Positions 1 to 12,692 of a DNA stretch of 12,692 nt are shown piece by piece. Source of the DNA: a virus (Duplodnaviria; Heunggongvirae; Uroviricota; Caudoviricetes); IMG/VR virus record IMGVR_UViG_2617270948_000001, positions 1 to 12,692 of that record, one strand, 5' to 3'. Every line of letters starts with the position of its first letter. Within the stretch, counting starts at the first letter, position 1. A model generated the notes under the pieces. The model saw nothing but the letters and a program-made list of their open reading frames with translations, was not told where the DNA came from and searched no databases. The position numbers were made by a program, and so were the translations under genes.

Positions 1-47
1 CATTCGTAATGCGAAGGTCGTAGGTTCGACTCCTATTATCGGCACCA
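1..47 (+). tRNA. thrW: 3' portion of a tRNA-Thr(CGU) gene (anticodon loop TTCGTAA, T-arm GGTTCGACTCC, acceptor 3' strand, terminal CCA at 45-47); window starts inside the gene; probable prophage attachment site
   Basis: Matches the canonical tRNA 3' half: T-loop GTTCGA, acceptor strand TATCGGC complementary to a GCCGATA 5' end, encoded CCA. A P22-type integrase is convergent 14 bp downstream. Identification as thrW is from memory of that tRNA and of P22 integrating there. Confidence 0.7.
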
Positions 48-61
48 TTAAAATCAATAAG

Positions 62-1225
62 TTACACATCATTAGTACCTTCCTTATTTTTTGACTGGGA
101 CAAATTTGGGACCGATGGGTTCAGGATCGAGTCTATTTGCCGTGCGTGTTCGGTAAGGTGATTAGGTGCAAGGTGAGCATATCGACGAACCATTTCGATA
201 GACTCCCAGCCTCCCATTTCCTGTAACACTGACAACGGGACTCCGGCTTGAACCAGCCAACTTGCCCAGGTGTGTCTCAAGTCGTGAAATCTGAAATCAT
301 CAATACCAGCCCGTCTCAGCGCCGCTTTCCAGGCTGTGTTTGCGTCATACCGCATCTTCCTTACTGTTGGCGCTTTCGTTCCGTCTGGTTTGGTACAGCT
401 TTCCTTGTACACAAATACCCAACGGTGATGATTCCCGATTTGTTTTTTCAATACGCGACATGCAGTATCATTCAGCGCAACGCCAATTGCGCGGTTTGAT
501 TTACTCTCTTCCGGGTTTATCCATGCCACCCGGCGCTGCATATCTATTTGTTGCCATTCAAGGTTGATGATGTTCGAGCGTCTTAAGCCTGTTGCCAGTG
601 CAAATTCAACAACAGACTTTAATGGCTCCGGACATTCATCAATCAGCCTTTGTGCTTCATGGGGCTCCAGCCAGCGGATCCGTTTATTCTTTGGTTGAGG
701 CACTTTAATAATTGGTGCCTTATCCAGCATTTTCCATTCACGCTCTGCGGCTCTTAGTAGGGCCTTTATAAATGAAAGATGCGTAGCCTTCGTTGCAACG
801 GACGCTGGTTTTGGCGTGTATTCTGGAACAGGTTTCCCTTTTTTTCTGCATGCTTCTGCCCTGAGTTTCCAGTTTTCCTCATGACGCCGGTTCGTCATTT
901 TCTGCATTGCTGAATAAATTTTTGATTCAGTAATGTCTCTTAGTTGCATTCCTGCGAAATGTTGAAGCCAGAATCCGATCCGGCTTTTGTCATCGTCCAG
1001 TGATTTTTTATGTGCTTTCTCTTCAAGCCACCTGACACAAGCTTCCTCGAACGTTATATCAGGTATTTCACCAAGTTTGCTGACCCGCCATGCTTCAGCC
1101 TTTAGCTTGTCATGGAGTTCTGTCGCCTGCCTTTTGTCCTTTGTTCCAAGAGACTGTTTAAATCTTTTACCGTTCGGCAATGTGAAACTGGCGTACCATA
1201 TTTCACCTCTGCGGAAGAGTGACAT
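62..1225 (-). CDS. int: Tyrosine recombinase / phage integrase, P22-Int type (387 aa)
   Basis: ATG at 1225 preceded by GAGGA; TAA at 62-64. Protein begins [22 protein letters not shown] as recalled for P22 Int. C-terminal catalytic signature HDLRHTWAS ... VRRYAHL (HxxR and Tyr nucleophile). Adjacent to tRNA 3' end. Confidence 0.93.
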
Positions 1226-1452
1226 TTTCTTTCCTCTGTTATGCCATCACCCGCGCTCACCTGGACAGTATGCAGCGGAGACTGAAGCGCCGCAATGCAG
1301 GCTTGTCGTGTTGTGAGGTAAGGAGATTTTAGTTTAGTGGGGTCTTTGCGTGTTGCCTGTAGGCGGCCTGTTCGTATCCAGTTGGTAGCGGTAGGTCTGG
1401 ATATCTTGAGAAACTGACAGGCCTCATCGAGTGTGAGGCTGTATGATTCCAT
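1102..1452 (-). CDS. xis: Excisionase, AlpA/Xis-type HTH (116 aa from ATG at 1452); 3' end overlaps int 5' end
   Basis: ATG at 1450-1452 preceded by AGAGG; the listed ORF extends 10 codons further only via a GTG. Protein [31 protein letters not shown] is the AlpA/excisionase HTH family. Position immediately upstream of int. Confidence 0.8.
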
Positions 1453-1702
1453 GGTTACCTCTGCTTTTTGAACGCATGTCACGTAACTTCTTAATGTGTT
1501 CTGCCGTTTCGATCTCTTCTGCTATCCGATCTGCATCAGCTTTATTCACAGGTTCAAAGTCATGATTAAAGCGGAACATGCTGGCGATACATGTTCTGCC
1601 TTTTCGGATGTAGTGAACTTTGTTGTGGGTAGAACGCAGGATTTTGCAGGGAGTGCCGTGGTGGTCGACGTACCAGGTGTTAGGCAAAATGATTCTGAAC
1701 AT
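1424..1702 (-). CDS. Hypothetical small early-region protein (92 aa)
   Basis: ATG at 1702 with GAGGTG Shine-Dalgarno 7 nt upstream; co-oriented with the early left operon; 3' end overlaps xis start by about 29 nt. No family recognised. Confidence 0.5.
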   Translation of the reverse strand: MFRIILPNTWYVDHHGTPCKILRSTHNKVHYIRKGRTCIASMFRFNHDFEPVNKADADRIAEEIETAEHIKKLRDMRSKSRGNHGIIQPHTR

Positions 1703-1749
1703 TTTTACACCTCAGTTGGACGATGTTGAAATTTGCTGCTTTGAGGCCA

Positions 1750-1968
1750 TCACAATCCCCATTGTTTGTTCTTAAGTTCGATCTCCTCCTGGCAACTTGC
1801 ACAAGTCCGACAACCCTGAACGGCCAGGCGTCTTCGTTCATCTATGGGATCGCCACACTCACAACAATGAGTGGCAGATATAACCTGGTGGTTCAGACGA
1901 CGCATTTTTATTGCTGTATTGCGCTGTAATTCTTCGATTTCTGATGCTGAATCAATGATGTCTGCCAT
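1750..1968 (-). CDS. TraR/DksA-family C4 zinc-finger protein (72 aa)
   Basis: Motif C-x2-C-x17-C-x2-C (CCECGDPIDERRRLAVQGCRTCASC) typical of DksA/TraR zinc fingers. ATG at 1968, co-oriented with early operon. Confidence 0.8.
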   Translation of the reverse strand: MADIIDSASEIEELQRNTAIKMRRLNHQVISATHCCECGDPIDERRRLAVQGCRTCASCQEEIELKNKQWGL

Positions 1969-2022
1969 CTTCCATTAATCCCTGAATTGTTGGTTAATAC
2001 GCTTGAGGGTGAATGCGAATAA

Positions 2023-2045
2023 TAAAAAAGGAGCCTGTAGCTCCC
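2023..2045 (-). terminator. Possible intrinsic terminator (minus strand): GGAGC-ctgta-GCTCC hairpin followed by a T7 run on the minus strand
   Basis: Plus strand reads aaaaaaaGGAGCctgtaGCTCC; on the minus strand this is a 5-6 bp GC-rich stem followed by TTTTTTT. Lies between two small early genes. Confidence 0.4.
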
Positions 2046-2066
2046 TGATGATTTTGCTTTTCATGT

Positions 2067-2282
2067 TCATCGCTCCTTAAAGACGCCGTTTAACATGCCG
2101 ATTGCCAGGCTTAAATGAGTCGGTGTGAATCCCATCAGCGTTACCGTTTCGCGGTGCTTCTTCAGTACGCTACGGCAAATGTCATCGACGTTTTTATCCG
2201 GAAACTGCTGTCTGGCTTTTTTGATTTCAGAATTAGCCTGACGGGCTATGCTGCGAAGGGCGTTTTCCTGCTGAAGTGTCAT
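2067..2282 (-). CDS. Hypothetical small protein (about 71 aa from ATG at 2282; alternative ATG at 2348; listed ORF start at 2381 is a TTG)
   Basis: Open frame ending TGA at 2067-2069; ATG at 2280-2282 with weak GGGA upstream. Start codon uncertain. No family recognised. Confidence 0.4.
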   Translation of the reverse strand: MTLQQENALRSIARQANSEIKKARQQFPDKNVDDICRSVLKKHRETVTLMGFTPTHLSLAIGMLNGVFKER

Positions 2283-2358
2283 TGAACAAGTCCCATGTCG
2301 GCAAGCATAAGCACACAGAATATGAAGCCCGCTGCCAGAAAAATGCATTCCGTGGTTG

Positions 2359-2916
2359 TCATGCAGCCTCCCGACGGGCAAGAATCCTTGAGCCGAACGC
2401 CATCAACTCTCCACGATCAACGGTCGTAAAGTGGCAGTGTGTACGGGGGTATGGGTGCCAGATAATGAGCATCGAGCCTTTATTATTTCCACTGACGGGT
2501 TTCTCAGTGAGTGGGTTAATAAATGCCAGTCGTCCTGCCGTGATGAATCTGACCTCACTGGCGGTTTGTATCGCTTCATGAAACCATCCGACAGATGTGT
2601 CAGCAGGCAATAACATTACACATCCCACACTACTGAATTTGTTTTCAGTGGCTGCCTTTTTCACAAAAGGGGAAATATTGCTGTATGGTGGATTCAACCA
2701 GACATAACCAGAGGCATATCCCATTGCTTCAGGCCATGAAGTGGTTAATGTGTTCTGCTCCTGTGAGATAAAAAGCCGACATAGTCGGTTTTTTTCGCTG
2801 GCGGCAGCATCAAGTTGAAAAACGAACTCTGCATTAAGCGCAGCAAAAATCTCTGGTGGTGTGCGCCAGCTGTCGCGATGTTCGGCAGGAGTATTGCTTC
2901 CGGTGAAATCAGTCAT
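2359..2916 (-). CDS. Phage Dam-family N6-adenine DNA methyltransferase (185 aa)
   Basis: Contains WRTPPEIF near N-terminus and the NPPY catalytic motif (WLNPPYSN), the layout of the phage N-6-adenine-methyltransferase (Dam) family. ATG at 2916 with GGGGG upstream. Confidence 0.85.
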   Translation of the reverse strand: MTDFTGSNTPAEHRDSWRTPPEIFAALNAEFVFQLDAAASEKNRLCRLFISQEQNTLTTSWPEAMGYASGYVWLNPPYSNISPFVKKAATENKFSSVGCVMLLPADTSVGWFHEAIQTASEVRFITAGRLAFINPLTEKPVSGNNKGSMLIIWHPYPRTHCHFTTVDRGELMAFGSRILARREAA

Positions 2917-3070
2917 ACAGCCCCCGTTTATTATTTATCGCCTCAGCCAGCCGCTGTGCTTTCAGTGGATTTCTGATAACAGAAAGGCCGGGAAATACCC
3001 AGCCTCGCTTTGTAACGGAGTAGACGAAAGTGATCGCGCCTACCCGGATATTATCGTGAGGATGCGTCAT
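2909..3070 (-). CDS. Unlisted small ORF (53 aa, [53 protein letters not shown]) between exo and the methyltransferase
   Basis: ATG overlaps the exo TGA stop (ATGA), and its TGA overlaps the methyltransferase start (ATGACTGA). Below the ORF-track length cutoff. Occupies the slot of the small ORF downstream of exo in lambda. Confidence 0.4.
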
Positions 3071-3747
3071 CGCCATTGCTCCCCAAATACAAAACCAATT
3101 TCAGCCAGTGCCTCGTCCATTTTTTCGATGAACTCCGGCACCATCTCGTCAAAACTCGCCATGTACTTTTCATTCCGCTCAATCACGACATAATGCAGGC
3201 CTTCACGCTTCATGCGCGGGTCATAGTTGGCAAAGTACCAGGCATCTTTTCGTGCCACCCACATGCTGTACTGCACCTGGGCCATGTAAGCCGATTTTAT
3301 GGCCTCGAAACCACCGAGCCGGAACTTCATGAAATCCCGGGAGGTAAACGGGCATTTCAGTTCAAGGCCGTTGCCATCACTGCATAAACCATCGGGAGAG
3401 CAGGCGGTGCGCATACTTTCGTCGCGATAGATGATCGGGGATTCAATAACATTCACGCCGGAAGTGAACTCAAACAGGGTTCTGGCGTCGTTCTCGTACT
3501 GTTTTCCCCAGGCCAGTGCTTTAGCGTTAACTTCCGGAGCCACACCGGTGCAAACCTCGGCAAGCAGGGTGTGGAAGTAGGACATTTTCATGTCAGGCCA
3601 CTTCTTTCCGGAGCGGGGTTTTGCTATCACGTTGTGAACTTCTGAAGCGGTGATGACGCCGAGCCGTAATTTGTGCCACGCATCATCCCCCTGTTCGACA
3701 GCTCTCACATCGATCCCGGTACGCTGCAGGATAATGTCCGGTGTCAT
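3067..3747 (-). CDS. exo: Lambda exonuclease (Red-alpha, 226 aa)
   Basis: Near-identical over full length to lambda Exo as recalled ([40 protein letters not shown] ... GFVFGEQWR). Start overlaps bet stop by 4 nt. Confidence 0.96.
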
Positions 3748-4529
3748 GCTGCCACCTTCTGCTCTGCGGCTTTCTGTTTCAGGAATCCAAGAGCTTTTAC
3801 TGCTTCGGCCTGTGTCAGTTCTGACGATGCACGAATGTCGCGGCGAAATATCTGGGAACAGAGCGGCAATAAGTCGTCATCCCATGTTTTATCCAGGGCG
3901 ATCAGCAGAGTGTTAATCTCCTGCATGGTTTCATCGTTAACCGGAGTGATGTCGCGTTCTGGCTGACGTTCTGCAGTGTATGCAGTATTTTCGACAATGC
4001 GCTCGGCTTCATCCTTGTCATAGATACCAGCAAATCCGAAGGCCAGACGGGCACACTGAATCATGGCTTTATGCCGTAACATCCGTTTGGGATGCGACTG
4101 CCACGGCCCCGTGATTTCTCTGCCTTCGCGAGTTTTGAATGGTTCGCGGCGGCATTCATCCATCCATTCGGTAACGCAGATCGGATGATTACGGTCCTTG
4201 CGGTAAATCCGGCATGTACAGGATTCATTGTCCTGCTCAAAGTCCATGCCATCAAACTGCTGGTTTTCATTGATGATGCGGGACCAGCCATCAACGCCCA
4301 CCACCGGAACGATGCCGTTCTGCTTATCAGGGAAGGCGTAAATTTCTTTCGTCCACGGATTAAGGCCGTACTGGTTGGCGACGATCAACAATGCGATGAA
4401 CTGCGCATCGCTGGCATCACCTTTAAATGCCGTCTGGCGAAGAGTGGTGATCAGTTCCTGTGGGTCGACAGAATCCATGCCGACACGTTCAGCCAGCTTC
4501 CCTGCCAGCGTTGCGAGTGCTGTACTCAT
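3744..4529 (-). CDS. bet: Lambda Beta single-strand annealing protein (Red-beta, 261 aa)
   Basis: Matches lambda Bet as recalled ([66 protein letters not shown] ...), same length. Confidence 0.96.
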
Positions 4530-4534
4530 CCGTT

Positions 4535-4831
4535 TTATACCTCTGAATCAATATCAACCTGGTGGTGAGCAATGGTTTCAACCATGTACCGGATGTGTTC
4601 TGCCATGCGCTCCTGAAACTCAACATCGTCATCAAACGCACGGGTAATGGCTTTTTTGCTGGCCCCGTGGCGTTGCAAATGATCGATGCATAGCGATTCA
4701 AACAGGTGCTGGGGCAGGCCTTTTTCCATGTCGTCTGCCAGTTCTGCCTCTTTCTCTTCACGGGCGATCTGCTGGTAGTGACGCGCCCAGCTCTGAGCCT
4801 CAAGACGATCCTGAATGTAATAAGCGTTCAT
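4535..4831 (-). CDS. gam: Lambda Gam, short (GamS-length, 98 aa) form only
   Basis: [60 protein letters not shown] ... VDIDSEV matches lambda Gam from its internal Met. The upstream in-frame extension is closed by TAA at 4907-4909 and has no ATG. Confidence 0.92.
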
Positions 4832-4906
4832 GGCTGAACTCCTGAAAATGGCTGTGAAAAAATCGCCCGCGGAATGCCTGGCTGATTCGGAAAACAGGAA
4901 AGGGGA

Positions 4907-5284
4907 TTAGTGATTCAGACCGTTGCCGCGTCCGTCGAGAAAAACTTCCACGAGCAAGTCACGGGTATAAGTGCGCTCAATGCCGCGATGCAGATAAAGT
5001 CGTCCGCGTAAATTAGCTGATGCAGTCCAGGTACCATCTTTGCGTTTGACCAGCATTCCTGGCATGACCGCACCTCGATTAACGGTCTGCGTTCCGTAAT
5101 GTTGATGAACCATAAAAACTCCTGCCCGTAAGCTGGGCTGCTGAACATATAGAGACTTCTGCGCGTATTCAGGCGGTGGATGGCCGCCGGTTGTCATAAC
5201 TAAGCCGCCTCGTTGAAGCGACTGAGGTATGAAGTGTTGAGTTGATTTCAGCTGGTCACACCGACGTTCACGCGTCCGCTTCAC
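4907..5284 (-). CDS. Hypothetical protein, first gene downstream of putative PL (N position); 125 aa if GTG at 5284, or 68 aa if ATG at 5113; arginine-rich N-terminus KRTRERR
   Basis: Open frame 4907-5317 (the listed start is TTG). GTG at 5282-5284 has GGAG 8 nt upstream; ATG at 5111-5113 has AGGAG 5 nt upstream. N-terminal KRTRERRCDQLK resembles the arginine-rich motif of N antiterminators (lambda TRRRERR). C-terminus does not match lambda Kil (which ends ...WILILKLRSSKSIH in the frame overlapping gam). Confidence 0.3.
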   Translation of the reverse strand: MKRTRERRCDQLKSTQHFIPQSLQRGGLVMTTGGHPPPEYAQKSLYVQQPSLRAGVFMVHQHYGTQTVNRGAVMPGMLVKRKDGTWTASANLRGRLYLHRGIERTYTRDLLVEVFLDGRGNGLNH

Positions 5285-5390
5285 CCCTCGCACTCCCCGG
5301 AGCCTGCTGAAATTCAAGCTGCGGATCTAAGCGGTCATCGCAACGGTGAATCAGGTGATTGCCGTATCGTTGTGTTGTTGCGATGAATTC

Positions 5391-5434
5391 ATTTAAAACT
5401 ATAGTTGTTTTATCGTCAACAACAAAAGTTGTTT
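5391..5434 (-). promoter_or_regulatory. Putative PL promoter and OL operator cluster (GTTGTT/AACAAC repeats overlapping a TTGACG -35)
   Basis: Minus strand: TTGACG (complement of 5414-5419), 17-bp spacer, TTAAAT (complement of 5391-5396). Overlapping GTTGTT(5404-5409)-N8-AACAAC(5418-5423) and AACAAC-aaaa-GTTGTT(5428-5433), the same half-site as the OR palindrome. Confidence 0.35.
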
Positions 5435-5561
5435 TGTTGGTTATTTTAGAAATAACTGGTTGTATTTAGGATGGATTTATTTTGTGACTTGCATCGCATA
5501 GCGATAACTGAAGCGAGGTTGTGGTGGTTTTTTGAACGGTGTGTGTGATGAGGGGAGGGGC

Positions 5562-5597
5562 AAAAGAAAACCCGGCACGGTGGCCGGGTTGTTTTTA
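5562..5597. terminator. Strong bidirectional intrinsic terminator (8-bp stem AACCCGGC/GCCGGGTT, loop acggtg, flanked by A-run and T-run)
   Basis: aaaagaaaaCCCGGCacggtgGCCGGGttgttttta; T-tract on either strand. Lies immediately 3' of the 316-aa minus-strand gene (stop at 5595-5597), ending the cI-cassette transcript before the PL region. Confidence 0.75.
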
Positions 5598-6545
5598 TAG
5601 CTCATTGTAAACAGCAATAGGCTCAATGAAATACTCATCAGAGTCAGGGGCGCAAAATGTTGACTCCAGATCAAAAAGGCTGTCATTCATATTCCAGACT
5701 GCACTGCGAATGCCGTTTAGTTCACGAGCCTCTGATTCCTGATTACCTTCAGACGTTGATGTACGCGTTATTATCCCTACGACTGTGAATGCAGAGGTCG
5801 TTCGACGAGAATATAACTTTACAAACATTTCTGGACTGATTTTAAGAAAATCTCTGATTAAGAATGAGGTGAATTTAATATCTTGCATTTTTTGTGATAT
5901 TTCTATTTCGTCACCATATGCGTAATCTAAAACAGAAGACAAATGCTCAAAGAATTTTTTCTGATTTGGAGATGTTAAATTATCAAGCTCACTTTTAATT
6001 TCTGCTTGTCTTGCCTTGATAATATTAAATTCATTGGATTTGGGTTTTATCGATTTCAGCATCGATTCTAGACTTTCTAATTCGTCATTTCGATGAACGA
6101 AATTAATAGCATAGTTAGTTTTACAGAAATTCTTAGCGGTATTTTTTAATTTATTATAGTCATTAAATTGAATTGGGCAGGTGATTTTAACAAAGCAATT
6201 AGCCTTAATTTTGTTCGAGTCGATCGGGGAAGTTATGTTAGACAGAATTCCTCTTTTGCTAAGTTCGTTTTCAAATTTCAGATAATGATAATCATGAGGG
6301 TTTAACACTGTTGATATTTTTTTTGTGTCACTCGTTTTACTTGAACTACTTTTTGTCTTTATTTCGACCGCATCTATATTTGAAAGAGTAGACTCTTTAT
6401 GCTCCATCGCGGATTGAATTACGCCCTCAAATAATTGAGAGCTTAAAGAGTAGACCTTCTCATAATCAATATAAATGATATTTTTTAACTGCATACCAAT
6501 TCCATTAGTGATATTTAAGTTGTTCTTTCTTTCTTTCAAAGTCAT
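5595..6545 (-). CDS. Hypothetical soluble protein (316 aa; possibly 299 aa from internal ATG at 6494), AT-rich cargo, no recognised family
   Basis: Long open frame in strongly AT-rich DNA unlike the flanking phage genes. Last gene of a three-ORF cassette co-oriented with cI. No Walker or other motif recognised by eye. Confidence 0.6.
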   Translation of the reverse strand: MTLKERKNNLNITNGIGMQLKNIIYIDYEKVYSLSSQLFEGVIQSAMEHKESTLSNIDAVEIKTKSSSSKTSDTKKISTVLNPHDYHYLKFENELSKRGILSNITSPIDSNKIKANCFVKITCPIQFNDYNKLKNTAKNFCKTNYAINFVHRNDELESLESMLKSIKPKSNEFNIIKARQAEIKSELDNLTSPNQKKFFEHLSSVLDYAYGDEIEISQKMQDIKFTSFLIRDFLKISPEMFVKLYSRRTTSAFTVVGIITRTSTSEGNQESEARELNGIRSAVWNMNDSLFDLESTFCAPDSDEYFIEPIAVYNEL

Positions 6546-6681
6546 CGCTATTTGACTTTCTGACCCTTTCTATGTGCATTAAAGTTTCCTGTGCATTTTT
6601 GAGGTTTTTTCTTGAAAACCATGCCAATACAGCAGGTATCACAACAGCTATTATGGATAAAATAGTAATTAAGTACTCCAT
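6505..6681 (-). CDS. Unlisted small membrane peptide (58 aa, MEYLITILSIIAVVIPAVLAWFSRKNLKNAQETLMHIERVRKSNSDDFERKKEQLKYH), single N-terminal TM helix
   Basis: ATG at 6679-6681 lies 3 nt after the TAA of the upstream 138-aa gene, whose last codons (CAG GAG TAA) supply an AGGAG Shine-Dalgarno. 3' end overlaps the 316-aa ORF start by 41 nt in another frame. Below the ORF-track cutoff. Confidence 0.45.
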   Translation of the reverse strand: MEYLITILSIIAVVIPAVLAWFSRKNLKNAQETLMHIERVRKSNSDDFERKKEQLKYH

Positions 6682-6684
6682 AAT

Positions 6685-7101
6685 TTACTCCTGCGCCACT
6701 ACTTTGTTATTGATAATAGCACACCTGACTGAATTTTGTCCAATGTATAAGGATATACCACAAGTAATAGCGACTAATATGCGAGTCGTATTCATGTTAA
6801 GGATGTTATCAGCCAGCATAACAATAATGTAAATTATAGAAAAAAGTACAATGAAAACAATCGATATGGTAGTGTTTATAATAATATTGTTTTCAGTTTG
6901 CTTGCTGGGTTGGCCCATTCCGTAATAAATACTGGATATTTGTATGGCAAAGCCAAAACATATCAACTCAGTTATATTGATCAGCTCTATGTTTTTATTA
7001 GTGATGAAATAAGCAATAAATCTAATAAAGATAGGGATTGCTCCAATGATTACTGTTCCGCACCACCACTTGAAATAATCACTATGAATATTATGTTGCA
7101 T
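6685..7101 (-). CDS. Hypothetical integral membrane protein (138 aa, about four predicted TM helices), first gene after cI
   Basis: Hydrophobic segments WWCGTVIIGAIPIFIRFIAYFI, ELICFGFAIQISSIYYG, ISIVFIVLFSIIYIIVMLA, ILVAITCGISLYIG. ATG at 7101, 49 bp downstream of the cI stop. AT-rich. Size and topology resemble RexB but no sequence similarity is claimed. Confidence 0.6.
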   Translation of the reverse strand: MQHNIHSDYFKWWCGTVIIGAIPIFIRFIAYFITNKNIELINITELICFGFAIQISSIYYGMGQPSKQTENNIIINTTISIVFIVLFSIIYIIVMLADNILNMNTTRILVAITCGISLYIGQNSVRCAIINNKVVAQE

Positions 7102-7149
7102 TATATAAACTCAATATTTAATTAATTTAAAGTTTCATAAGTTCCATGT

Positions 7150-7839
7150 TTACCCATGCTTCCTGTACGTCTGCGGCATGCTCCCGATGACTTTCCCGAA
7201 AATGAATACCCGGTTCATCTCGTCTTTCTCGATCGGGTCCCACGGTGAGTAACTCTTGTTATCAGAGATAACGAGCAGCTTATCCTTCATCATTTGCAGG
7301 CGCTTTACATGGGCTGTGTCGTCGTACAGAAACGCATAGATACCATCACCGTCGAAAGATTTAACAGTGATATCAACGAACAAAAGGTCACCTGGTTCGA
7401 TCGTTCCTGACATGCTGTCACCGCGTACGTTAATGATGCGGATATTTTCTGCCTTCCTACCATCGAACATGTGACGAGCATCGTCAAACGAGTACTCAAC
7501 CGAGCGTAGAACTTCTACAAACTCACGGTTGATGACTCCCGGCCCGGCACTCACTTCTATATCAAGAACGTCAATCTTAAAGTATTTGGAATGGCTGACA
7601 GTTGATTGTATTGGTTGCACTGTACTGTCTGACATATTTCCAACGCCAGAAGATAACCATTCTGCGCGCACACCCAAAGCGTTCGCGATCTCCACGATTT
7701 TAGTTGTTTGATTAGCTTTCCCTGTTTCGATTTTCTGAATAGCAGCCTGGCTAACCCCGACCAAATCCCCAAGCGCCTTTTGTGTAAGGCCTCGCGCTAA
7801 TCTGGCTTCTTTAAGTCTTTCTGAGAGTGTTGTTTTCAT
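7150..7839 (-). CDS. CI-like prophage repressor (229 aa from ATG at 7839): N-terminal XRE-type HTH plus C-terminal LexA-like S24 autopeptidase domain
   Basis: HTH segment LTQKALGDLVGVSQAAIQKIETGK; Ala-Gly cleavage site in VSAGPG; catalytic Ser in RGDSM and Lys in HVKRL. The listed ORF start at 7905 runs through the operator region. ATG at 7839 has almost no leader, consistent with a PRM-type leaderless transcript. Confidence 0.85.
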   Translation of the reverse strand: MKTTLSERLKEARLARGLTQKALGDLVGVSQAAIQKIETGKANQTTKIVEIANALGVRAEWLSSGVGNMSDSTVQPIQSTVSHSKYFKIDVLDIEVSAGPGVINREFVEVLRSVEYSFDDARHMFDGRKAENIRIINVRGDSMSGTIEPGDLLFVDITVKSFDGDGIYAFLYDDTAHVKRLQMMKDKLLVISDNKSYSPWDPIEKDEMNRVFIFGKVIGSMPQTYRKHG

Positions 7840-7931
7840 AGTCCAAATGTACAACCAAGGTTTTATTCCATCAAACGAAAATGGTTGTTGACTAAAAACA
7901 ACCATAGTTTTAATCTTGATTCAAATTAACC
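7840..7931. promoter_or_regulatory. OR-like immunity switch: divergent PRM (minus) and PR (plus) promoters with a 25-bp perfect palindromic operator
   Basis: Palindrome ATGGTTGTT-gactaaa-AACAACCAT at 7881-7905. PR: TTGACT (7888-7893), 17 bp, TAATCT (7911-7916). PRM on minus strand: TTGATG (complement 7869-7874), 17 bp, TACATT (complement 7846-7851), about 7 nt before the cI ATG. Extra ACAACC/GGTTGT half-sites at 7851-7856 and 7937-7942. Confidence 0.55.
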
Positions 7932-7943
7932 ATGGAGGTTGTT

Positions 7944-8174
7944 ATGAACCCAGCTATCAAAACAGCGATCAATATCGTTGGTTCACAAAAGAAACTGGGC
8001 GCTGCTTGCGAAGTTTCACAGCAGGCCGTCTATAAGTGGCTTCACAACAAAGCAAAGGTATCCCCTGAACATGTCGGCAGCATTGTTACGGCTACTGGTG
8101 GAGTAGTGAAGGCATACCAGATTCGCCCGGATCTTCCGAAGTTGTTTCCACACACCGAAAAGAACGCAGCTTAA
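7944..8174 (+). CDS. Cro-like small HTH regulator, DicC/YdaS-like (76 aa from ATG at 7944; the listed ORF begins at an upstream ATG at 7932)
   Basis: GGAGG at 7934-7938 sits 5 nt before the ATG at 7944. Sequence SQKKLGAACEVSQQAVYKWL is a DicC/YdaS-type HTH. Divergent from the repressor across the operator region. Confidence 0.7.
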   Translation: MNPAIKTAINIVGSQKKLGAACEVSQQAVYKWLHNKAKVSPEHVGSIVTATGGVVKAYQIRPDLPKLFPHTEKNAA

Positions 8175-8186
8175 ATTTCCATTTCA

Positions 8187-8199
8187 CGCTCTTTAACAA
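8187..8199 (+). promoter_or_regulatory. boxA-like element CGCTCTTTAACAA at the nutR position just downstream of cro
   Basis: GCTCTTTAACAA matches the E. coli rrn/lambdoid boxA consensus as recalled. Located 13 bp after the cro-like stop, where nutR lies in lambda. No convincing boxB hairpin seen downstream. Confidence 0.35.
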
Positions 8200-8243
8200 T
8201 AAGCAATCAACTTAACAGTCAATTCAAACTAAAGGAGTCAATT

Positions 8244-8783
8244 ATGCAACCACTTACATACCAACAGACTAGCGGATTTAGCCCGACTGCGGTGATAAAT
8301 CGTTCTCAAACAAAACAGGTGCCAGGCCACGAAAAAATCCGTGATGCCGTCCGCGCCTGGTCGGCTGTAGATAATCAGGATGTCGTTGCCACACTCATTG
8401 TGAATGAGTATCGGGAGCAGGGCGGCGGCACCATCGATTTCCCTGATGATGTCAGCCGTGCACGCCAGAAGCTGTTCCGCTTCCTCGATAACAAATTCGA
8501 TTCTGAAAAATACCGAAATAACGTGCGTGAACTGACCCCGGCAATTCTGGCTGTACTACCGCTGGAATATCGCGGCCACCTGGTTGAGCAGGATAGCTTC
8601 ATGGCTAGGCTGGCTGAAATGGAAAAGGAACTCAGTGAGGCAAAACAGGCTGTCATTCTCAACGCACCACGCCACCAGAAACTGAAGGAGATGAGTGAAG
8701 GCATTGTGTCGATGTTTCGAGTGGACCCGGATCTGGCAGGTCCATTGATGGCGATGGTCACCACCATGCTGGGGGCAATATGA
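8244..8783 (+). CDS. YdaT-like protein at the cII position (179 aa)
   Basis: AGGAG 7 nt upstream of ATG at 8244. Segments NEYREQGGG and LTPAILAVLPLEYRGHL resemble recalled Rac YdaT (EEYLRQGGG, LIPAILAILPRELRHRL). Follows a YdaS/DicC-like cro as in Rac-type immunity regions. No similarity to lambda CII. Confidence 0.5.
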   Translation: MQPLTYQQTSGFSPTAVINRSQTKQVPGHEKIRDAVRAWSAVDNQDVVATLIVNEYREQGGGTIDFPDDVSRARQKLFRFLDNKFDSEKYRNNVRELTPAILAVLPLEYRGHLVEQDSFMARLAEMEKELSEAKQAVILNAPRHQKLKEMSEGIVSMFRVDPDLAGPLMAMVTTMLGAI

Positions 8784-8869
8784 CATGTTCAGAAATGGCG
8801 AAAGCCGGTCTGCTGGAACAGAACCGACTTTCAGGTGCAAATCGTAACGCACTCATTGCGGGAGGAATT

Positions 8870-9799
8870 ATGGCAAACACTGCTGAGATATTCAATTTTC
8901 CAGTGCCGGATGCGGCACAAAAGGAGCCGCGCGTGGCAGATCTCGATGATGGTTATACGCGCATTGCAAATGAGTTGCTGGAAGCTGTGATGCTGGCCGG
9001 ATTAACACAGCACCAGCTTCTGGTCTTCCTGGCTGTCATGCGCAAAACATATGGCTTTAATAAAAAACTGGATTGGGTGAGCAACGAGCAACTTTCCGAG
9101 TTGACCGGGATATTGCCGCACAAGTGTTCTGCTGCAAAAAGTGTTCTGGTAAAGCGTGGGATTTTTATTCAGAGCGGGCGGAATATAGGCATTAATAATG
9201 TGGTCAGTGAATGGTCAACATTACCCGAATCAGGTAAGAAAAATAAAGTTTACCTGAAAGAGGTAAATTTACCTGAATCAGGTAAGAAAAGTTTACCCAA
9301 ATCAGGTAAAGGCACTTACCCGAATCAGGTAAACACAAAAGACAAACTAACAAAAGACAATATAAAACCTTATTCGTCCGAGAATTCTGGCGAATCCTCT
9401 GACCAGCCAGAAAACGATCTTCCTGTGGTGAAACCGGATGCTGCAATTCAGAGCGGCAGCAAGTGGGGGACAGCAGAAGACCTGACCGCCGCAGAGTGGA
9501 TGTTTGACATGGTGAAGACCATCGCGCCATCAGCCAGAAAACCGAATTTTGCAGGGTGGGCTAACGATATCCGCCTGATGCGTGAACGTGACGGACGTAA
9601 CCACCGCGATATGTGTGTACTGTTCCGCTGGGCATGCCAGGACAACTTCTGGTCCGGTAACGTGCTAAGTCCGGCCAAACTCCGCGACAAGTGGACCCAA
9701 CTCGAAATCAACCGTAACAAGCAACAGGCAGGCGTGACAGCTAGCAAACCAAAACTCGACCTGACAAACACAGACTGGATTTACGGGGTGGATCTATGA
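8870..9799 (+). CDS. O: Replication initiator O (lambda O family, 309 aa from ATG at 8870; listed ORF start at 8780 is probably an upstream in-frame extension)
   Basis: GGAGG 4 nt before ATG at 8870. MANTAEIFNF ... ADLDDGYTRIANELLEA ... RKTYGFNK parallels lambda O N-terminus (MTNTAKILNF ... ADLDDGYARLSN ... RKTYGWNK). Iterons lie inside the gene. Stop overlaps P start (ATGA). Confidence 0.9.
   Translation: MANTAEIFNFPVPDAAQKEPRVADLDDGYTRIANELLEAVMLAGLTQHQLLVFLAVMRKTYGFNKKLDWVSNEQLSELTGILPHKCSAAKSVLVKRGIFIQSGRNIGINNVVSEWSTLPESGKKNKVYLKEVNLPESGKKSLPKSGKGTYPNQVNTKDKLTKDNIKPYSSENSGESSDQPENDLPVVKPDAAIQSGSKWGTAEDLTAAEWMFDMVKTIAPSARKPNFAGWANDIRLMRERDGRNHRDMCVLFRWACQDNFWSGNVLSPAKLRDKWTQLEINRNKQQAGVTASKPKLDLTNTDWIYGVDL
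9221..9333. repeat. Replication origin iterons: five copies (one degenerate) of an 18-bp dyad TTACC(C/T)(G/A)AATCAGGTAA(G/A), followed by an AT-rich stretch at 9334-9370
   Basis: Copies at 9221-9238, 9249-9265 (degenerate), 9269-9286, 9293-9310, 9316-9333, spaced about 20-28 bp, then cacaaaagacaaactaacaaaagacaatataaaacc. Inside the O gene, as in ori-lambda. Encodes repeated PESGKK in the O linker. Confidence 0.75.
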
Positions 9800-10497
9800 A
9801 AAACATCGCCGCACAGATGATTAACTTTGACCGTGAGCAGATGCGTCGGATCGCCAACAACATGCCGGAACAGTACGACGAAAAGCCGCAGGTACAGCAG
9901 GTAGCGCAGATCATCAATGGTGTGTTCAGCCAGTTACTGGCAACTTTCCCGGCGAGCCTGGCTAACCGGGACCAGAACGAACTGAACGAAATCCGCCGCC
10001 AGTGGGTTCTGGCTTTCCGGGAAAACGGGATCACCACGATGGAACAGGTTAACGCAGGAATGCGCGTAGCCCGTCGGCAGAATCGACCATTCCTGCCATC
10101 ACCCGGGCAGTTTGTTGCCTGGTGCCGGGAAGAAGCATCCGTTACCGCCGGGCTGCCAAACGCCAGCGAGCTGGTTGATATGGTTTACGAGTATTGCCGG
10201 AAACGTGGCCTGTATCCGGATGCAGAGTCTTATCCGTGGAAATCAAACGCGCACTACTGGCTGGTTACCAACCTGTATCAGAACATGCGGGCCAATGCGC
10301 TGACTGATGCGGAATTACGGCGCAAGGCTGCCGATGAACTGGCCTGTATGACAGCGCGAATTAACCGTGGTGAGGCGATACCTGAACCAGTAAAACAACT
10401 TCCTGTCATGGGCGGGAGACCGCTTAATCGTGTTCAGGCTCTGGCGAAGATCGCAGAAATCAAAGCGAAGTTTGGGCTGAAAGGAGCAAGTGTATGA
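9796..10497 (+). CDS. P: Replication protein P (lambda P, DnaB helicase loader, 233 aa)
   Basis: Essentially identical to lambda P as recalled (MKNIAAQMINFDREQMRRIANNMPEQYDEKPQVQQVAQIINGVFSQLLATFPASLANRDQNE ... KFGLKGASV). Confidence 0.96.
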   Translation: MKNIAAQMINFDREQMRRIANNMPEQYDEKPQVQQVAQIINGVFSQLLATFPASLANRDQNELNEIRRQWVLAFRENGITTMEQVNAGMRVARRQNRPFLPSPGQFVAWCREEASVTAGLPNASELVDMVYEYCRKRGLYPDAESYPWKSNAHYWLVTNLYQNMRANALTDAELRRKAADELACMTARINRGEAIPEPVKQLPVMGGRPLNRVQALAKIAEIKAKFGLKGASV

Positions 10498-10667
10498 CGG
10501 GCAAAGAGGCAATTATTCATTACCTGGGGACTCATAAGAACTTCTGTGCGCAGGACGTTGCCGCGGTAACAGGCGCAACCGTAACCAGCATAAATCAGGC
10601 TGCGGCTAAAATGGCGCGGGCAGGAATCCTGGTCGTTGATGGTAAGGTCTGGCGAACGTTTGTTTAA
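10494..10667 (+). pseudogene. ren: Truncated ren (57 codons versus about 96 in lambda); marks the point where lambda-like sequence ends
   Basis: ATG overlaps P stop (ATGA). MTGKEAIIHYLGTHKNFCAQDVAAVTGATVTSINQAAAKMARAGILVVDGKVWRT matches the lambda Ren N-terminus, then diverges (FV-stop) into AT-rich unrelated sequence. Below ORF-track cutoff. Confidence 0.6.
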
Positions 10668-10813
10668 CGGTTAGCTACTCAGGATGATAGGGCGGGGCAA
10701 GTGAGTATGAAGCGGATTTTCAGGAATGCCATCAGAGTTTGGAAATAAAGTGGGTTTTCTAGTGGCAAGAGACTTGATAATATTTAGTTCTTTGAATCCA
10801 AGGAGATAGGGTT

Positions 10814-11308
10814 ATGAGAAAATTTATTTTAGCCTTTGTTATAAGTGCCTCGTTTACAGCAAATGCTGGTGTAGAGAAGTTAGGGCCGTGGATAACAAAG
10901 TCTGAGATAAATAAAATGACTGATCAGACTGACTTTGTGGCTCTTAATTTATCACCAGATTCATATAACAAAGCAGGTACTGATCGTGCAACTTCACTGG
11001 TGTTGCGTTGTAGTGATAACAAAACAGATGTCTATTTATCATTCAATGATTATATGGGTTCGGACAACCCAAGAATTACAGTACGGTTAGATGGCGGAAA
11101 GCCGGTCAAGAGTGTTTGGGGAGGTGGGGAAGGCGGTGATTCTGCATTTGCTCCACAACCAATACAATTTATAAAGACCTTGGCTAAGCATAAAAAAGCT
11201 ATTTTTGGGTTTGAACCTTATGGATCAACTATGCAAGTAGTTGAGTTTGACTTGTCTGAGATTGATAAGGTTGTGGAAAAAATTTCACAGTCTTGCAATT
11301 GGAAATAA
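10814..11308 (+). CDS. Hypothetical secreted/periplasmic protein (164 aa) with Sec signal peptide; AT-rich cargo
   Basis: AGGAG 8 nt before ATG. N-terminus MRKFILAFVISASFTANA-GVE has a positive n-region, hydrophobic core and an A-x-A cleavage site. Two Cys (C66, C162) could form a disulfide. No family recognised. Confidence 0.6.
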   Translation: MRKFILAFVISASFTANAGVEKLGPWITKSEINKMTDQTDFVALNLSPDSYNKAGTDRATSLVLRCSDNKTDVYLSFNDYMGSDNPRITVRLDGGKPVKSVWGGGEGGDSAFAPQPIQFIKTLAKHKKAIFGFEPYGSTMQVVEFDLSEIDKVVEKISQSCNWK

Positions 11309-11325
11309 CAAAAAAATATCATATG

Positions 11326-11352
11326 AACCCAGTTGGCTCTGGGTTTTTTATT
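11326..11352 (+). terminator. Intrinsic terminator after the secreted-protein gene (stem AACCCAG/CTGGGTT, loop ttggct, then TTTTTTATTT)
   Basis: Perfect 7-bp stem immediately followed by a T-run, 18 bp after the stop codon. Confidence 0.65.
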
Positions 11353-11704
11353 TCTGTTGTCTATAATGTATTCATAATTTTTACTGGGATACAGTGCACA
11401 TAAAATCCCAATTGCGGTAGGACGATAACTGGATCAGGTGGAGGCACTTACGCAAGAATTGATTGTATTAATTTGCATAGAGCAACGCGAAGTTATTTAT
11501 AAATTAACTGATATAGAGTACTAGATGTAATCCGAACCGGTTATGATTCGTCACCAATTTTGCAAGAGGCTGGGTAGGTAAGCTATTGGATACCGTAGGT
11601 AGCAAAAATATAGAAGGAGGGGAAGAATTGCTAAACTCGAGCATTCACTTAAATCTGAGTTATTTATTGTTAAGATATAATACACTTTGAATAATAGAGG
11701 CTAT

Positions 11705-12109
11705 ATGACAACGAAAATAAGCAAAGATGATAAACATCTGCTTGATCCTTATTTAAAATGGCTTGCAAACAAGAAGCTAATGGTTGCCTTCTGGTTGGTG
11801 CTAATGATATGTGGTTGCATATATGCATATATAGAAAATGATTGGTCACTTCTTCCCCGATTCGGATGTTTAGGCATAATGATTGGCACATTGCTTACTC
11901 TTTCTCCGCTTTTTGCAGAAGGTATCTACCTGTCAAGGCGAGAAGCATTTAGTTTTGGTTCGGTACAACAAGATGGGAGCGTCACCTCAACCTCTGAAAA
12001 AGGTCGTGCAGTATCAAGGAATATTCTATGGGGTGTTATCATTATAATCATATCATCGATAATAAATGCATTTGGTGACTTAATAATGGTCACGATTATG
12101 AATGGTTAA
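11705..12109 (+). CDS. Hypothetical small membrane protein (134 aa from ATG at 11705; the listed ORF start at 11687 is a TTG), about three TM helices
   Basis: AGAGG 4 nt before ATG. Hydrophobic segments LMVAFWLVLMICGCIYAYI, LGIMIGTLLTLSPLF, ILWGVIIIIISSIINAFGDLIMVTI. AT-rich. No family recognised. Confidence 0.5.
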   Translation: MTTKISKDDKHLLDPYLKWLANKKLMVAFWLVLMICGCIYAYIENDWSLLPRFGCLGIMIGTLLTLSPLFAEGIYLSRREAFSFGSVQQDGSVTSTSEKGRAVSRNILWGVIIIIISSIINAFGDLIMVTIMNG

Positions 12110-12365
12110 AATAATTAATATTTATGATATTAGTATTATATAACTTAGTATGCTGTTTAATTAAGTCACCGCAGACTTGACACTTGGCGGTAACTTCTGC
12201 GCTAAACGGTGACGTTTATACGCACATACAATCTAAATCCTCTTCTCCCTCCACAGATGCAGAAATATACCTGCGATTTTTTGCATTCGGTGTGTAGTGG
12301 CATAGTGAATTTGGCCACCTGAATAGAGGTGATATCATCACCTCATAGTCAAAACAGGTGACATT

Positions 12366-12677
<312 letters not shown>

Positions 12678-12692
12678 TTGAGAAACTCAGGG

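Follow-up and report, generated by a model that had tools for sequence, protein, structure and literature searches.

The window analysed here is the whole of a 12,692-nucleotide stretch of DNA, positions 1 to 12,692 of IMG/VR record IMGVR_UViG_2617270948_000001 (Caudoviricetes), and represents a lambdoid prophage integrated beside a transfer RNA (tRNA) gene. Our subject is a small open reading frame (ORF) of 58 codons on the minus strand, situated between a gene for a multi-pass membrane protein and a gene for a soluble protein with the domain DUF6414. The small ORF is a functional gene, the middle one of a conserved three-gene operon, referred to below as the cassette. Features of the cassette are listed in the direction of its transcription.

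6685-7101, minus strand: gene for a 138-residue multi-pass membrane protein with three to four transmembrane (TM) segments (multi-TM gene), first gene of the cassette (hydropathy, orthologue alignment)
6688-6692, minus strand: AGGAG Shine-Dalgarno sequence of the small ORF, made from the last codons of the upstream gene
6505-6681, minus strand: gene for a 58-residue bitopic peptide, the small ORF (ORF call, orthologues, excess of synonymous over nonsynonymous differences, PGAP)
6523-6537, minus strand: (AGAA)x3.75 repeat within codons 47-52 of the small ORF (Tandem Repeats Finder, period 4, 3.8 copies)
5595-6494, minus strand: DUF6414 (PF19952) gene, 299 residues, soluble product, true start ATG at 6494-6492
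5569-5590, minus strand: intrinsic terminator (terminator scan; 8-bp stem, 6 GC pairs, T-rich tail)

The small ORF begins with ATG at 6681-6679 and ends with TAA at 6507-6505; its 58-residue product is MEYLITILSIIAVVIPAVLAWFSRKNLKNAQETLMHIERVRKSNSDDFERKKEQLKYH. The 138-codon ORF upstream ends in CAG GAG TAA (6693-6685), three nucleotides (ATT) separate its stop from the small-ORF start, and its terminal codons supply AGGAG at 6692-6688, with a spacing of 6 nucleotides to the ATG. At the other end, the stop of the small ORF lies 10 nucleotides ahead of the ATG at 6494-6492 that opens the DUF6414 protein (MQLKNIIY...). An original prediction, made from the letters of the window, had described these relationships and the product as a 58-residue peptide with a single TM segment, and all of this is confirmed. 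A hydropathy scan finds one TM segment, residues 1-24, with the helix at about residues 3-23; the tail that follows is basic (10 K/R and 6 D/E) and has a basic juxtamembrane SRKNLK. The charged C-terminal tail is predicted to be helical and cytoplasmic. Under the positive-inside rule, an N-out/C-in orientation is expected for a sequence of this kind. The same prediction called the ORF unlisted, which is true of the ORF track it was given and not of public annotation: the gene already has a PGAP entry as a hypothetical protein, WP_001557807.1, and the exact 58-residue peptide is indexed in 367 blocks of a public collection. The length of the ORF is by itself weak evidence, because shuffles of the 33% GC cassette yield 0.33 ORFs of at least 58 residues per three frames, as compared with 3 observed; the small ORF is more than chance because it is conserved in related loci.

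By the longest-ORF rule, the downstream frame opens at ATG 6545 and encodes 316 residues, and the small ORF overlaps this start by 41 nucleotides in another frame. The prediction reported that overlap with correct coordinates, but the start at 6545 is an artefact of the longest-ORF rule, and the gene starts at 6494. The Pfam DUF6414 profile scores 66.9 bits (cut-off 25; E 3.2e-18), and its full length, positions 1-283, aligns to residues 20-313 of the 316-residue ORF. The PGAP product has 299 residues and starts at the ATG equivalent to 6494. All of 36 homologues, which show 27-64% identity with 99-100% coverage of the 299-residue query, are 297-311 residues long and start at the equivalent of M18; none of them has the 17-codon N-terminal extension. 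Orthologous loci have the frame closed upstream of the DUF6414 start, and a Shine-Dalgarno-like GGA or GAGG stands 7-12 nucleotides before it. Since the extension to 6545 comes from the longest-ORF rule, the 41-nucleotide overlap is artefactual as well. In the predicted structure of the DUF6414 protein (pLDDT 80, pTM 0.70), helical hairpins are inserted into a beta-barrel that appears OB-like, and residues 24-63 form a disordered loop; an N-terminal strand of the protein (IYLDxxK) is conserved. A Foldseek search with this model returned nothing significant, and sequence profiles found no solved relative.

Comparison with related loci shows the small ORF to be a constant part of the cassette. 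The set comprises 36 unfused loci, namely six of Enterobacterales prophage type, three metagenomic, 26 from species genomes and one from a Vibrio phage. All 36 encode, in the same order, a multi-TM protein (about 131-147 residues), a single-TM peptide (42-64 residues) and a DUF6414 protein (about 300 residues), and the window shares with them the gene order, sizes, TM layout and tight spacing. No homologous cassette without the peptide frame was seen among them. Five prophage cassettes, at six loci, come from Buttiauxella, Klebsiella pasteurii, Enterobacter ludwigii, Erwinia and one metagenome; their multi-TM proteins have 136-139 residues, their peptides 57-58 and their DUF6414 proteins 297-301, with a gap of 11-20 nucleotides between the last two ORFs. 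The 26 species genomes include Psychrobacter, Vreelandella/Halomonas, Methylobacter, Oceanospirillum, Photobacterium and Nitrosomonas, and also Bacteriovorax, Thermodesulfobacteriota, Bacteroidales/Prevotella and a metagenome-assembled genome of Lachnospiraceae. At the distant loci (the three metagenomic contigs and the 26 genomes), the peptide has 42-64 residues and its gene usually overlaps both neighbours by 4-17 nucleotides. Spacing on the two sides of the peptide gene is +3 and +10 nucleotides in the window and ranges from -17 to +20 elsewhere, often as ATGA-type overlaps, and homologous loci have an equivalent GGAG or GAGG upstream of the small-ORF start. DUF6414 identity across the loci falls as low as 25%. 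All of the peptides have the TM segment at the N-terminus, then a basic tail with [ST]R[KR]K and an acidic-aromatic pair followed by RK.

Selection on the peptide gene is purifying. The proportion of nonsynonymous differences is lower than that of synonymous differences (pN<pS) in 14 of 14 pairwise comparisons, and the ratio of nonsynonymous to synonymous rates (dN/dS) is 0.04-0.66, compared to 0.04-0.22 for the neighbouring genes in those pairs that allowed an estimate of dS. Of the three products the peptide evolves fastest, at 36-56% identity where its neighbours have 60-77%. With its presence in 36 of 36 unfused cassettes, its tight spacing and this purifying selection, the small ORF is almost certainly a real gene and the third component of the operon, in agreement with the proposal that it is coupled between the membrane and soluble genes.

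Three kinds of temperate phage carry the cassette directly behind a repressor gene. Those of Buttiauxella, Klebsiella, Enterobacter and Erwinia are directly downstream of a prophage repressor gene, with at least two repressor types represented. Vibrio phage 10N.286.54.E4_PE001, a temperate 186-like phage and the sole carrier of a DUF6414 homologue among 50,697 phage records, has the trio (147, 60 and 305 residues; locus L041, 1267-4487) between its CI repressor gene and its integrase gene, with all three genes annotated as hypothetical. A decayed cassette was observed in Psychrobacter sp. WY6 (locus L026, 2879-3201), in which the peptide ORF is cut down to 35 residues and the DUF6414 ORF to 67, while the multi-TM ORF is intact.

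The original prediction also offered that a single frameshift might have split a TM-anchored version of the 316-residue protein, and it proposed a search for loci in which the two frames are fused. The frameshift is unsupported here: the split form is the norm, homologues of the DUF6414 protein have 297-311 residues, and the frame relation between the peptide and DUF6414 genes differs between clades. Fusions do occur elsewhere, as a rare Escherichia coli allele, in one clade and in one further protein. The E. coli allele (P0033) encodes 360 residues and is present on 2 contigs, as against 155 and 32 contigs for members of split-form E. coli clusters. Its junction reads ...DDFERK followed directly by NNLNITNGIGMQLK..., and the fusion stretch reads ...SNSDDFERK-NNLNITNGIGMQLKNIIY.... 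If one AGAA unit is lost from the repeat at 6523-6537, the small ORF and the DUF6414 gene come into one frame, and a 4-nucleotide deletion, as deduced from the protein junction together with the window sequence, would explain the fused allele exactly. Orthologues from Klebsiella, Enterobacter, Buttiauxella and Erwinia lack the AGAA repeat.

Further fusions occur in the domain family at large. A profile built from 37 relatives matches 919 cluster representatives (E<=1e-3), a DUF6414-wide figure and not a count of modules; two of the best 150 of these 919 have an N-terminal TM extension. One of the two is P0186, whose clade comprises nine 90%-identity clusters of 331-340 residues with 47-100% identity. 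Each of the nine has a TM helix, a motif resembling one in the free peptides (YYAFSxR[RK]xS[IV]xx[YF]) and a linker of 25-30 residues. P0186 occurs on 11 contigs, where the multi-TM gene still precedes it, and P0139 is a further peptide::DUF6414 fusion of the same arrangement. At three loci beyond the 36, L037-L039, the peptide and DUF6414 genes are fused. An AlphaFold2 model of the fused P0186 consists of a helix at residues 2-44, a low-confidence segment at 41-55 and then the DUF6414 fold. As a separate observation, a helical hairpin that the unfused proteins possess has been shortened by about 35 residues in the P0186 clade (alignment A4, columns 207-240; L038 and L039).

Such Rosetta-stone fusions indicate that the peptide is functionally tied to DUF6414 and that its C-terminal tail is in the same compartment as DUF6414. 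Because the peptide is fused to DUF6414 in some lineages, its most likely function is that of a membrane anchor or adaptor, and we consider it probable that it serves the DUF6414 protein as a subunit of this kind.

The multi-TM protein, encoded by the first gene, is a member of a family of 121-153 residues that has no Pfam domain and is matched by no Pfam, NCBIfam or PADLOC model. An alignment of 31 orthologues (A3) shows W12 and R27 to be invariant and T16, G20, P23 and G50 nearly so. The gene is kept in more than 35 loci under strong purifying selection (dN/dS 0.05-0.22). It is nevertheless unannotated in PGAP/GenBank records (NZ_CP076264 and three other assemblies), although the adjoining 58-codon ORF is annotated there. 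Two observations concern the junction with the small ORF. The multi-TM ORF shares its reading frame with the small ORF in E. coli, Klebsiella and Enterobacter, the two being separated only by the stop and one codon, so that read-through of the stop would join them; this layout is absent from distant loci, which have ATGA-type overlaps. A promoter-like site at 6713-6742 on the minus strand (TGGACA, an 18-nucleotide spacer and TG-TATTAT, 10 of 12 matches) lies inside the multi-TM gene at its 3' end, some 32 nucleotides upstream of the small ORF, and recalls lambda pLIT inside rexA. In this AT-rich region, sites of this type show no enrichment relative to shuffled sequence.

Other features of the window are as follows.

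1-44: partial tRNA, cut at the window edge
62-1225, minus strand: tyrosine integrase ORF
7150-7905, minus strand: cI-like repressor gene (HTH_3 and Peptidase_S24; Pfam 6.5e-13 and 1.5e-18)
10814-11308: 164-residue protein with a signal-peptide-like N-terminus, in a second low-GC block
11687-12109: 140-residue membrane protein, in the second low-GC block
12366-12677: ORF whose product resembles the IS3-family transposase orfA (judged by eye), in the second low-GC block

The repressor is the first gene of a leftward immunity transcription unit. Its longest ORF has 251 residues; the PGAP start gives 229 (7150-7839), with the product named 'S24 family peptidase'. To its right lie divergent cro-like and YdaT/cII-like genes. 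The leftward unit runs from the repressor through the multi-TM gene, the 58-codon ORF and the DUF6414 gene to the terminator, which closes the operon 5 nucleotides past the DUF6414 stop; the kil, gam and bet genes follow. The small ORF thus falls in the immunity region, between repressor and kil/gam/bet genes, and outside any lysis cassette. A terminator scan found no terminator-like site between the repressor stop (7150) and the multi-TM start (7101). The hairpin of the terminator at 5569-5590 is symmetric and has T-runs on either strand, so that the terminator looks bidirectional; it may also stop rightward transcription from the kil/gam side.

Base composition of the cassette is moron-like, at 31-36% GC against 46-53% in its flanks. 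The cassette is 99.8% identical to that of E. coli NADC1036, an independent complete genome in which the prophage is at tRNA-Thr, adjoining proA; NADC1036 is the sole carrier of the cassette among 5426 complete E. coli genomes. The second low-GC block (36-40%) extends over 10800-12692, downstream of the replication/ren region. At the corresponding position NADC1036 has genes for an AAA ATPase and RloB instead, so this looks like a second site of variable cargo.

The cassette may be an unnamed, phylogenetically broad anti-phage or exclusion system, in which a bitopic peptide of about 50 residues would recruit an OB-like DUF6414 sensor to a small multi-pass membrane effector; it would then be a functional analogue of RexAB and Kiwa of independent origin, captured repeatedly behind the repressor genes of unrelated phages. 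The probability of this reading as a whole is put at roughly 0.4. Its parts differ in strength. For an anti-phage role of the cassette the balance tips slightly in favour; the specific scheme of sensor and effector is a tentative one and rather doubtful in its details. From the positive charge of its tail and the fusions, we infer for the complex that the peptide would insert N-out/C-in and that its basic cytoplasmic tail would hold DUF6414 at the inner face of the membrane, beside the multi-TM protein. The membrane-tethered DUF6414 protein might then sense a cue of infection, possibly nucleic acid through its OB-like barrel, whereupon the multi-TM protein could act as the membrane effector, with exclusion or abortive infection as the presumed phenotype. 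As for the mode of expression, the cassette would be transcribed in temperate phages by read-through from the repressor gene and would consequently be expressed in lysogens, like lambda rexAB; its position behind both lambdoid and 186-like repressor genes makes expression in lysogens likely. Also in favour of a role against phages are the moron-like composition, the domain shared with Dodola (discussed below) and the fact that some of the copies outside phages adjoin genes for type I restriction-modification, AriA-like, MADS, PD-T4-4, SoFic, AbiL and PtuA proteins.

Several results weigh against this reading. Many of the copies outside phages adjoin housekeeping genes (alaS, a ylqF-like GTPase gene, mutY), and with such neighbours common the defence-island signal is mixed. 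PADLOC gives no match for any of the three proteins, and a literature search on DUF6414/PF19952, the RefSeq accessions and repressor-adjacent membrane systems brought up no description of the cassette and no experiment on it, with DUF6414 named in one paper of the library searched and the accessions in none. The AlphaFold2 model of P0186 depicts a tether and no docked interface. Since no fusion of multi-TM protein to peptide is seen among 36 members of the multi-TM family, what connects the peptide with that protein is synteny. Finally, its rapid evolution, as the fastest of the three, would also fit a loosely constrained regulator.

That last alternative is the strongest rival to an anchor, though we judge it unlikely: the peptide would be a regulator, either a gating or antitoxin-like subunit that closes a latent pore formed by the multi-TM protein, or a membrane-damaging effector, holin-like or toxin-like, under the control of DUF6414. 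In its favour, the peptide is short and bitopic, its tail is highly charged, it is made in a fixed ratio to the multi-TM protein and it evolves faster than either neighbour; there is also a weak, sub-threshold resemblance to holin, LysB and KwaA models that reflects shared general architecture. These matches amount to 13-15 bits against cut-offs of 35-100 (holin_LLH 13.1 bits, cut-off 34.75; LysB 15.2 bits, cut-off 92.75), and searches with the peptide and the multi-TM protein in Pfam, PADLOC, PHROGs and NCBIfam give chance-level matches only. The labels 'holin-like' and 'antitoxin-like' attached to the ORF by the original prediction accordingly find no support, and the gene lies outside a lysis cassette. 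In stable natural fusions, moreover, the partner of the peptide is DUF6414 and never the multi-TM protein, which suits a tether better than a free inhibitor, and the fused allele in E. coli isolates means that permanent attachment is tolerated.

The remaining alternatives are each far less probable. The first is that a frameshift, or an indel in the assembly, has divided a single TM-anchored gene into the small ORF and the DUF6414 gene; it is suggested by the single 4-nucleotide repeat unit that separates the two frames, by the 360-residue allele on 2 contigs and by the natural fusions of the other clade. Against this very improbable account, the split form stands on hundreds of E. coli contigs (367 blocks with the exact peptide) versus the 2 fused; a complete genome, independent of this one, has the same sequence at 99.8% identity; each of the 36 other unfused loci has the split form, with differing frame relations and with a Shine-Dalgarno sequence and start belonging to DUF6414 itself; the 36 homologues all have the length of the unfused protein; and purifying selection acts on both parts. 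Nor is it any likelier that slippage at the AGAA repeat, or ribosomal frameshifting, makes both free peptide and peptide::DUF6414 from one phase-variable or dual-product locus. The (AGAA)x3.75 tract does sit exactly where a shift joins the frames, and isolates do carry the fused allele, but fewer than four units make a poor slippage tract, the four orthologous genera lack the repeat, the variant is confined to its 2 contigs, and the DUF6414 gene has its own Shine-Dalgarno-like element and start. An untranslated chance frame, or the shadow of another feature, has a negligible probability: the ORF is short, AT-rich and hydrophobic and is overlapped by an 86-codon antisense ORF (6572-6832, plus strand), but its position, length class, TM architecture and basic tail are conserved across phyla, pN<pS holds in 14 of 14 pairs, the Shine-Dalgarno sequence is at the correct spacing, and Rfam has zero family matches at the site. 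An anchor or adaptor of DUF6414 remains the preferred role for the peptide.

For annotation, these results mean that the DUF6414 gene starts at 6494 and not at 6545, that the 58-codon gene is real, and that public PGAP records miss the 138-residue membrane gene. They define a coherent three-gene module, extending from Enterobacterales to Bacteroidales, for which no published name or description was found in the literature search, and which takes the position of rexAB in lambdoid phages and in a 186-like phage. Through the fusions, which point to the peptide as membrane anchor of DUF6414, a domain of unknown function acquires a testable model as a membrane-tethered sensor or effector. If the cassette is indeed an anti-phage system, it would offer a first mechanistic handle on the domain that it has in common with the Dodola system.

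Among known systems, Dodola shares that domain. Both bioRxiv 10.1101/2024.10.26.620412 and PMC11514479 report DUF6414 for one protein of the two-gene system (DolA/DolB), with a ClpB-like partner (DolB), and cite Millman et al. 2022 for Dodola as a defence system. The largest protein of our cassette is likewise a Pfam DUF6414 protein, and both are small mobile cassettes of unknown mechanism. They differ in that our operon ends at its terminator without a ClpB-like ATPase partner and has as partners two small membrane proteins with no family model. Dodola PADLOC models give no match at E<=1 to any of the three proteins, which are reached only by the broader Pfam DUF6414; no ATPase gene is called beside the cassette in the annotated loci, and none is a recurrent neighbour at the 26 genome loci. 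Because there is no ATPase gene and the PADLOC models are unmatched, the cassette is not Dodola, though it shares the signature domain. The comparison suggests that DUF6414 proteins can exchange partners, working with a ClpB-like ATPase in Dodola and with membrane proteins in our cassette.

Holins, antiholins and spanin-like LysB proteins resemble the peptide in size and in having one TM helix with a charged tail. The peptide differs from them in scoring under every family cut-off, in lying outside a lysis cassette, and in being conserved in non-phage chromosomal copies, always with DUF6414.

In layout the cassette resembles lambda RexAB and Kiwa. When the lambda layout is compared, the cassette is in the same way co-oriented with the repressor gene, directly downstream of it and closed by a terminator, and it too pairs a multi-TM protein of about 140 residues with a soluble one of about 280-300; it differs in its reversed order, with the membrane gene first, and in the extra peptide gene. 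Homology to the Rex proteins was considered and rejected: hhalign gives a probability of 0.1% for alignment A1 against lambda RexA and 0.3% for A3 against lambda RexB, with no match to Pfam RexA or RexB. In Kiwa (KwaA and KwaB), too, a cytoplasmic protein of about 300 residues accompanies a small multi-pass membrane protein, and action at the membrane is proposed; Kiwa has no third peptide gene. PADLOC finds no Kiwa match, NCBIfam KwaA reaches a chance-level 13.1 bits against a cut-off of 100 on the 58-residue peptide only, and no relation of KwaB to the cassette proteins is detectable. By analogy, then, the cassette is best described as a DUF6414 cassette with membrane partners that resembles RexAB and Kiwa in position and architecture, and the best model for it would be a membrane-associated exclusion or abortive-infection module.

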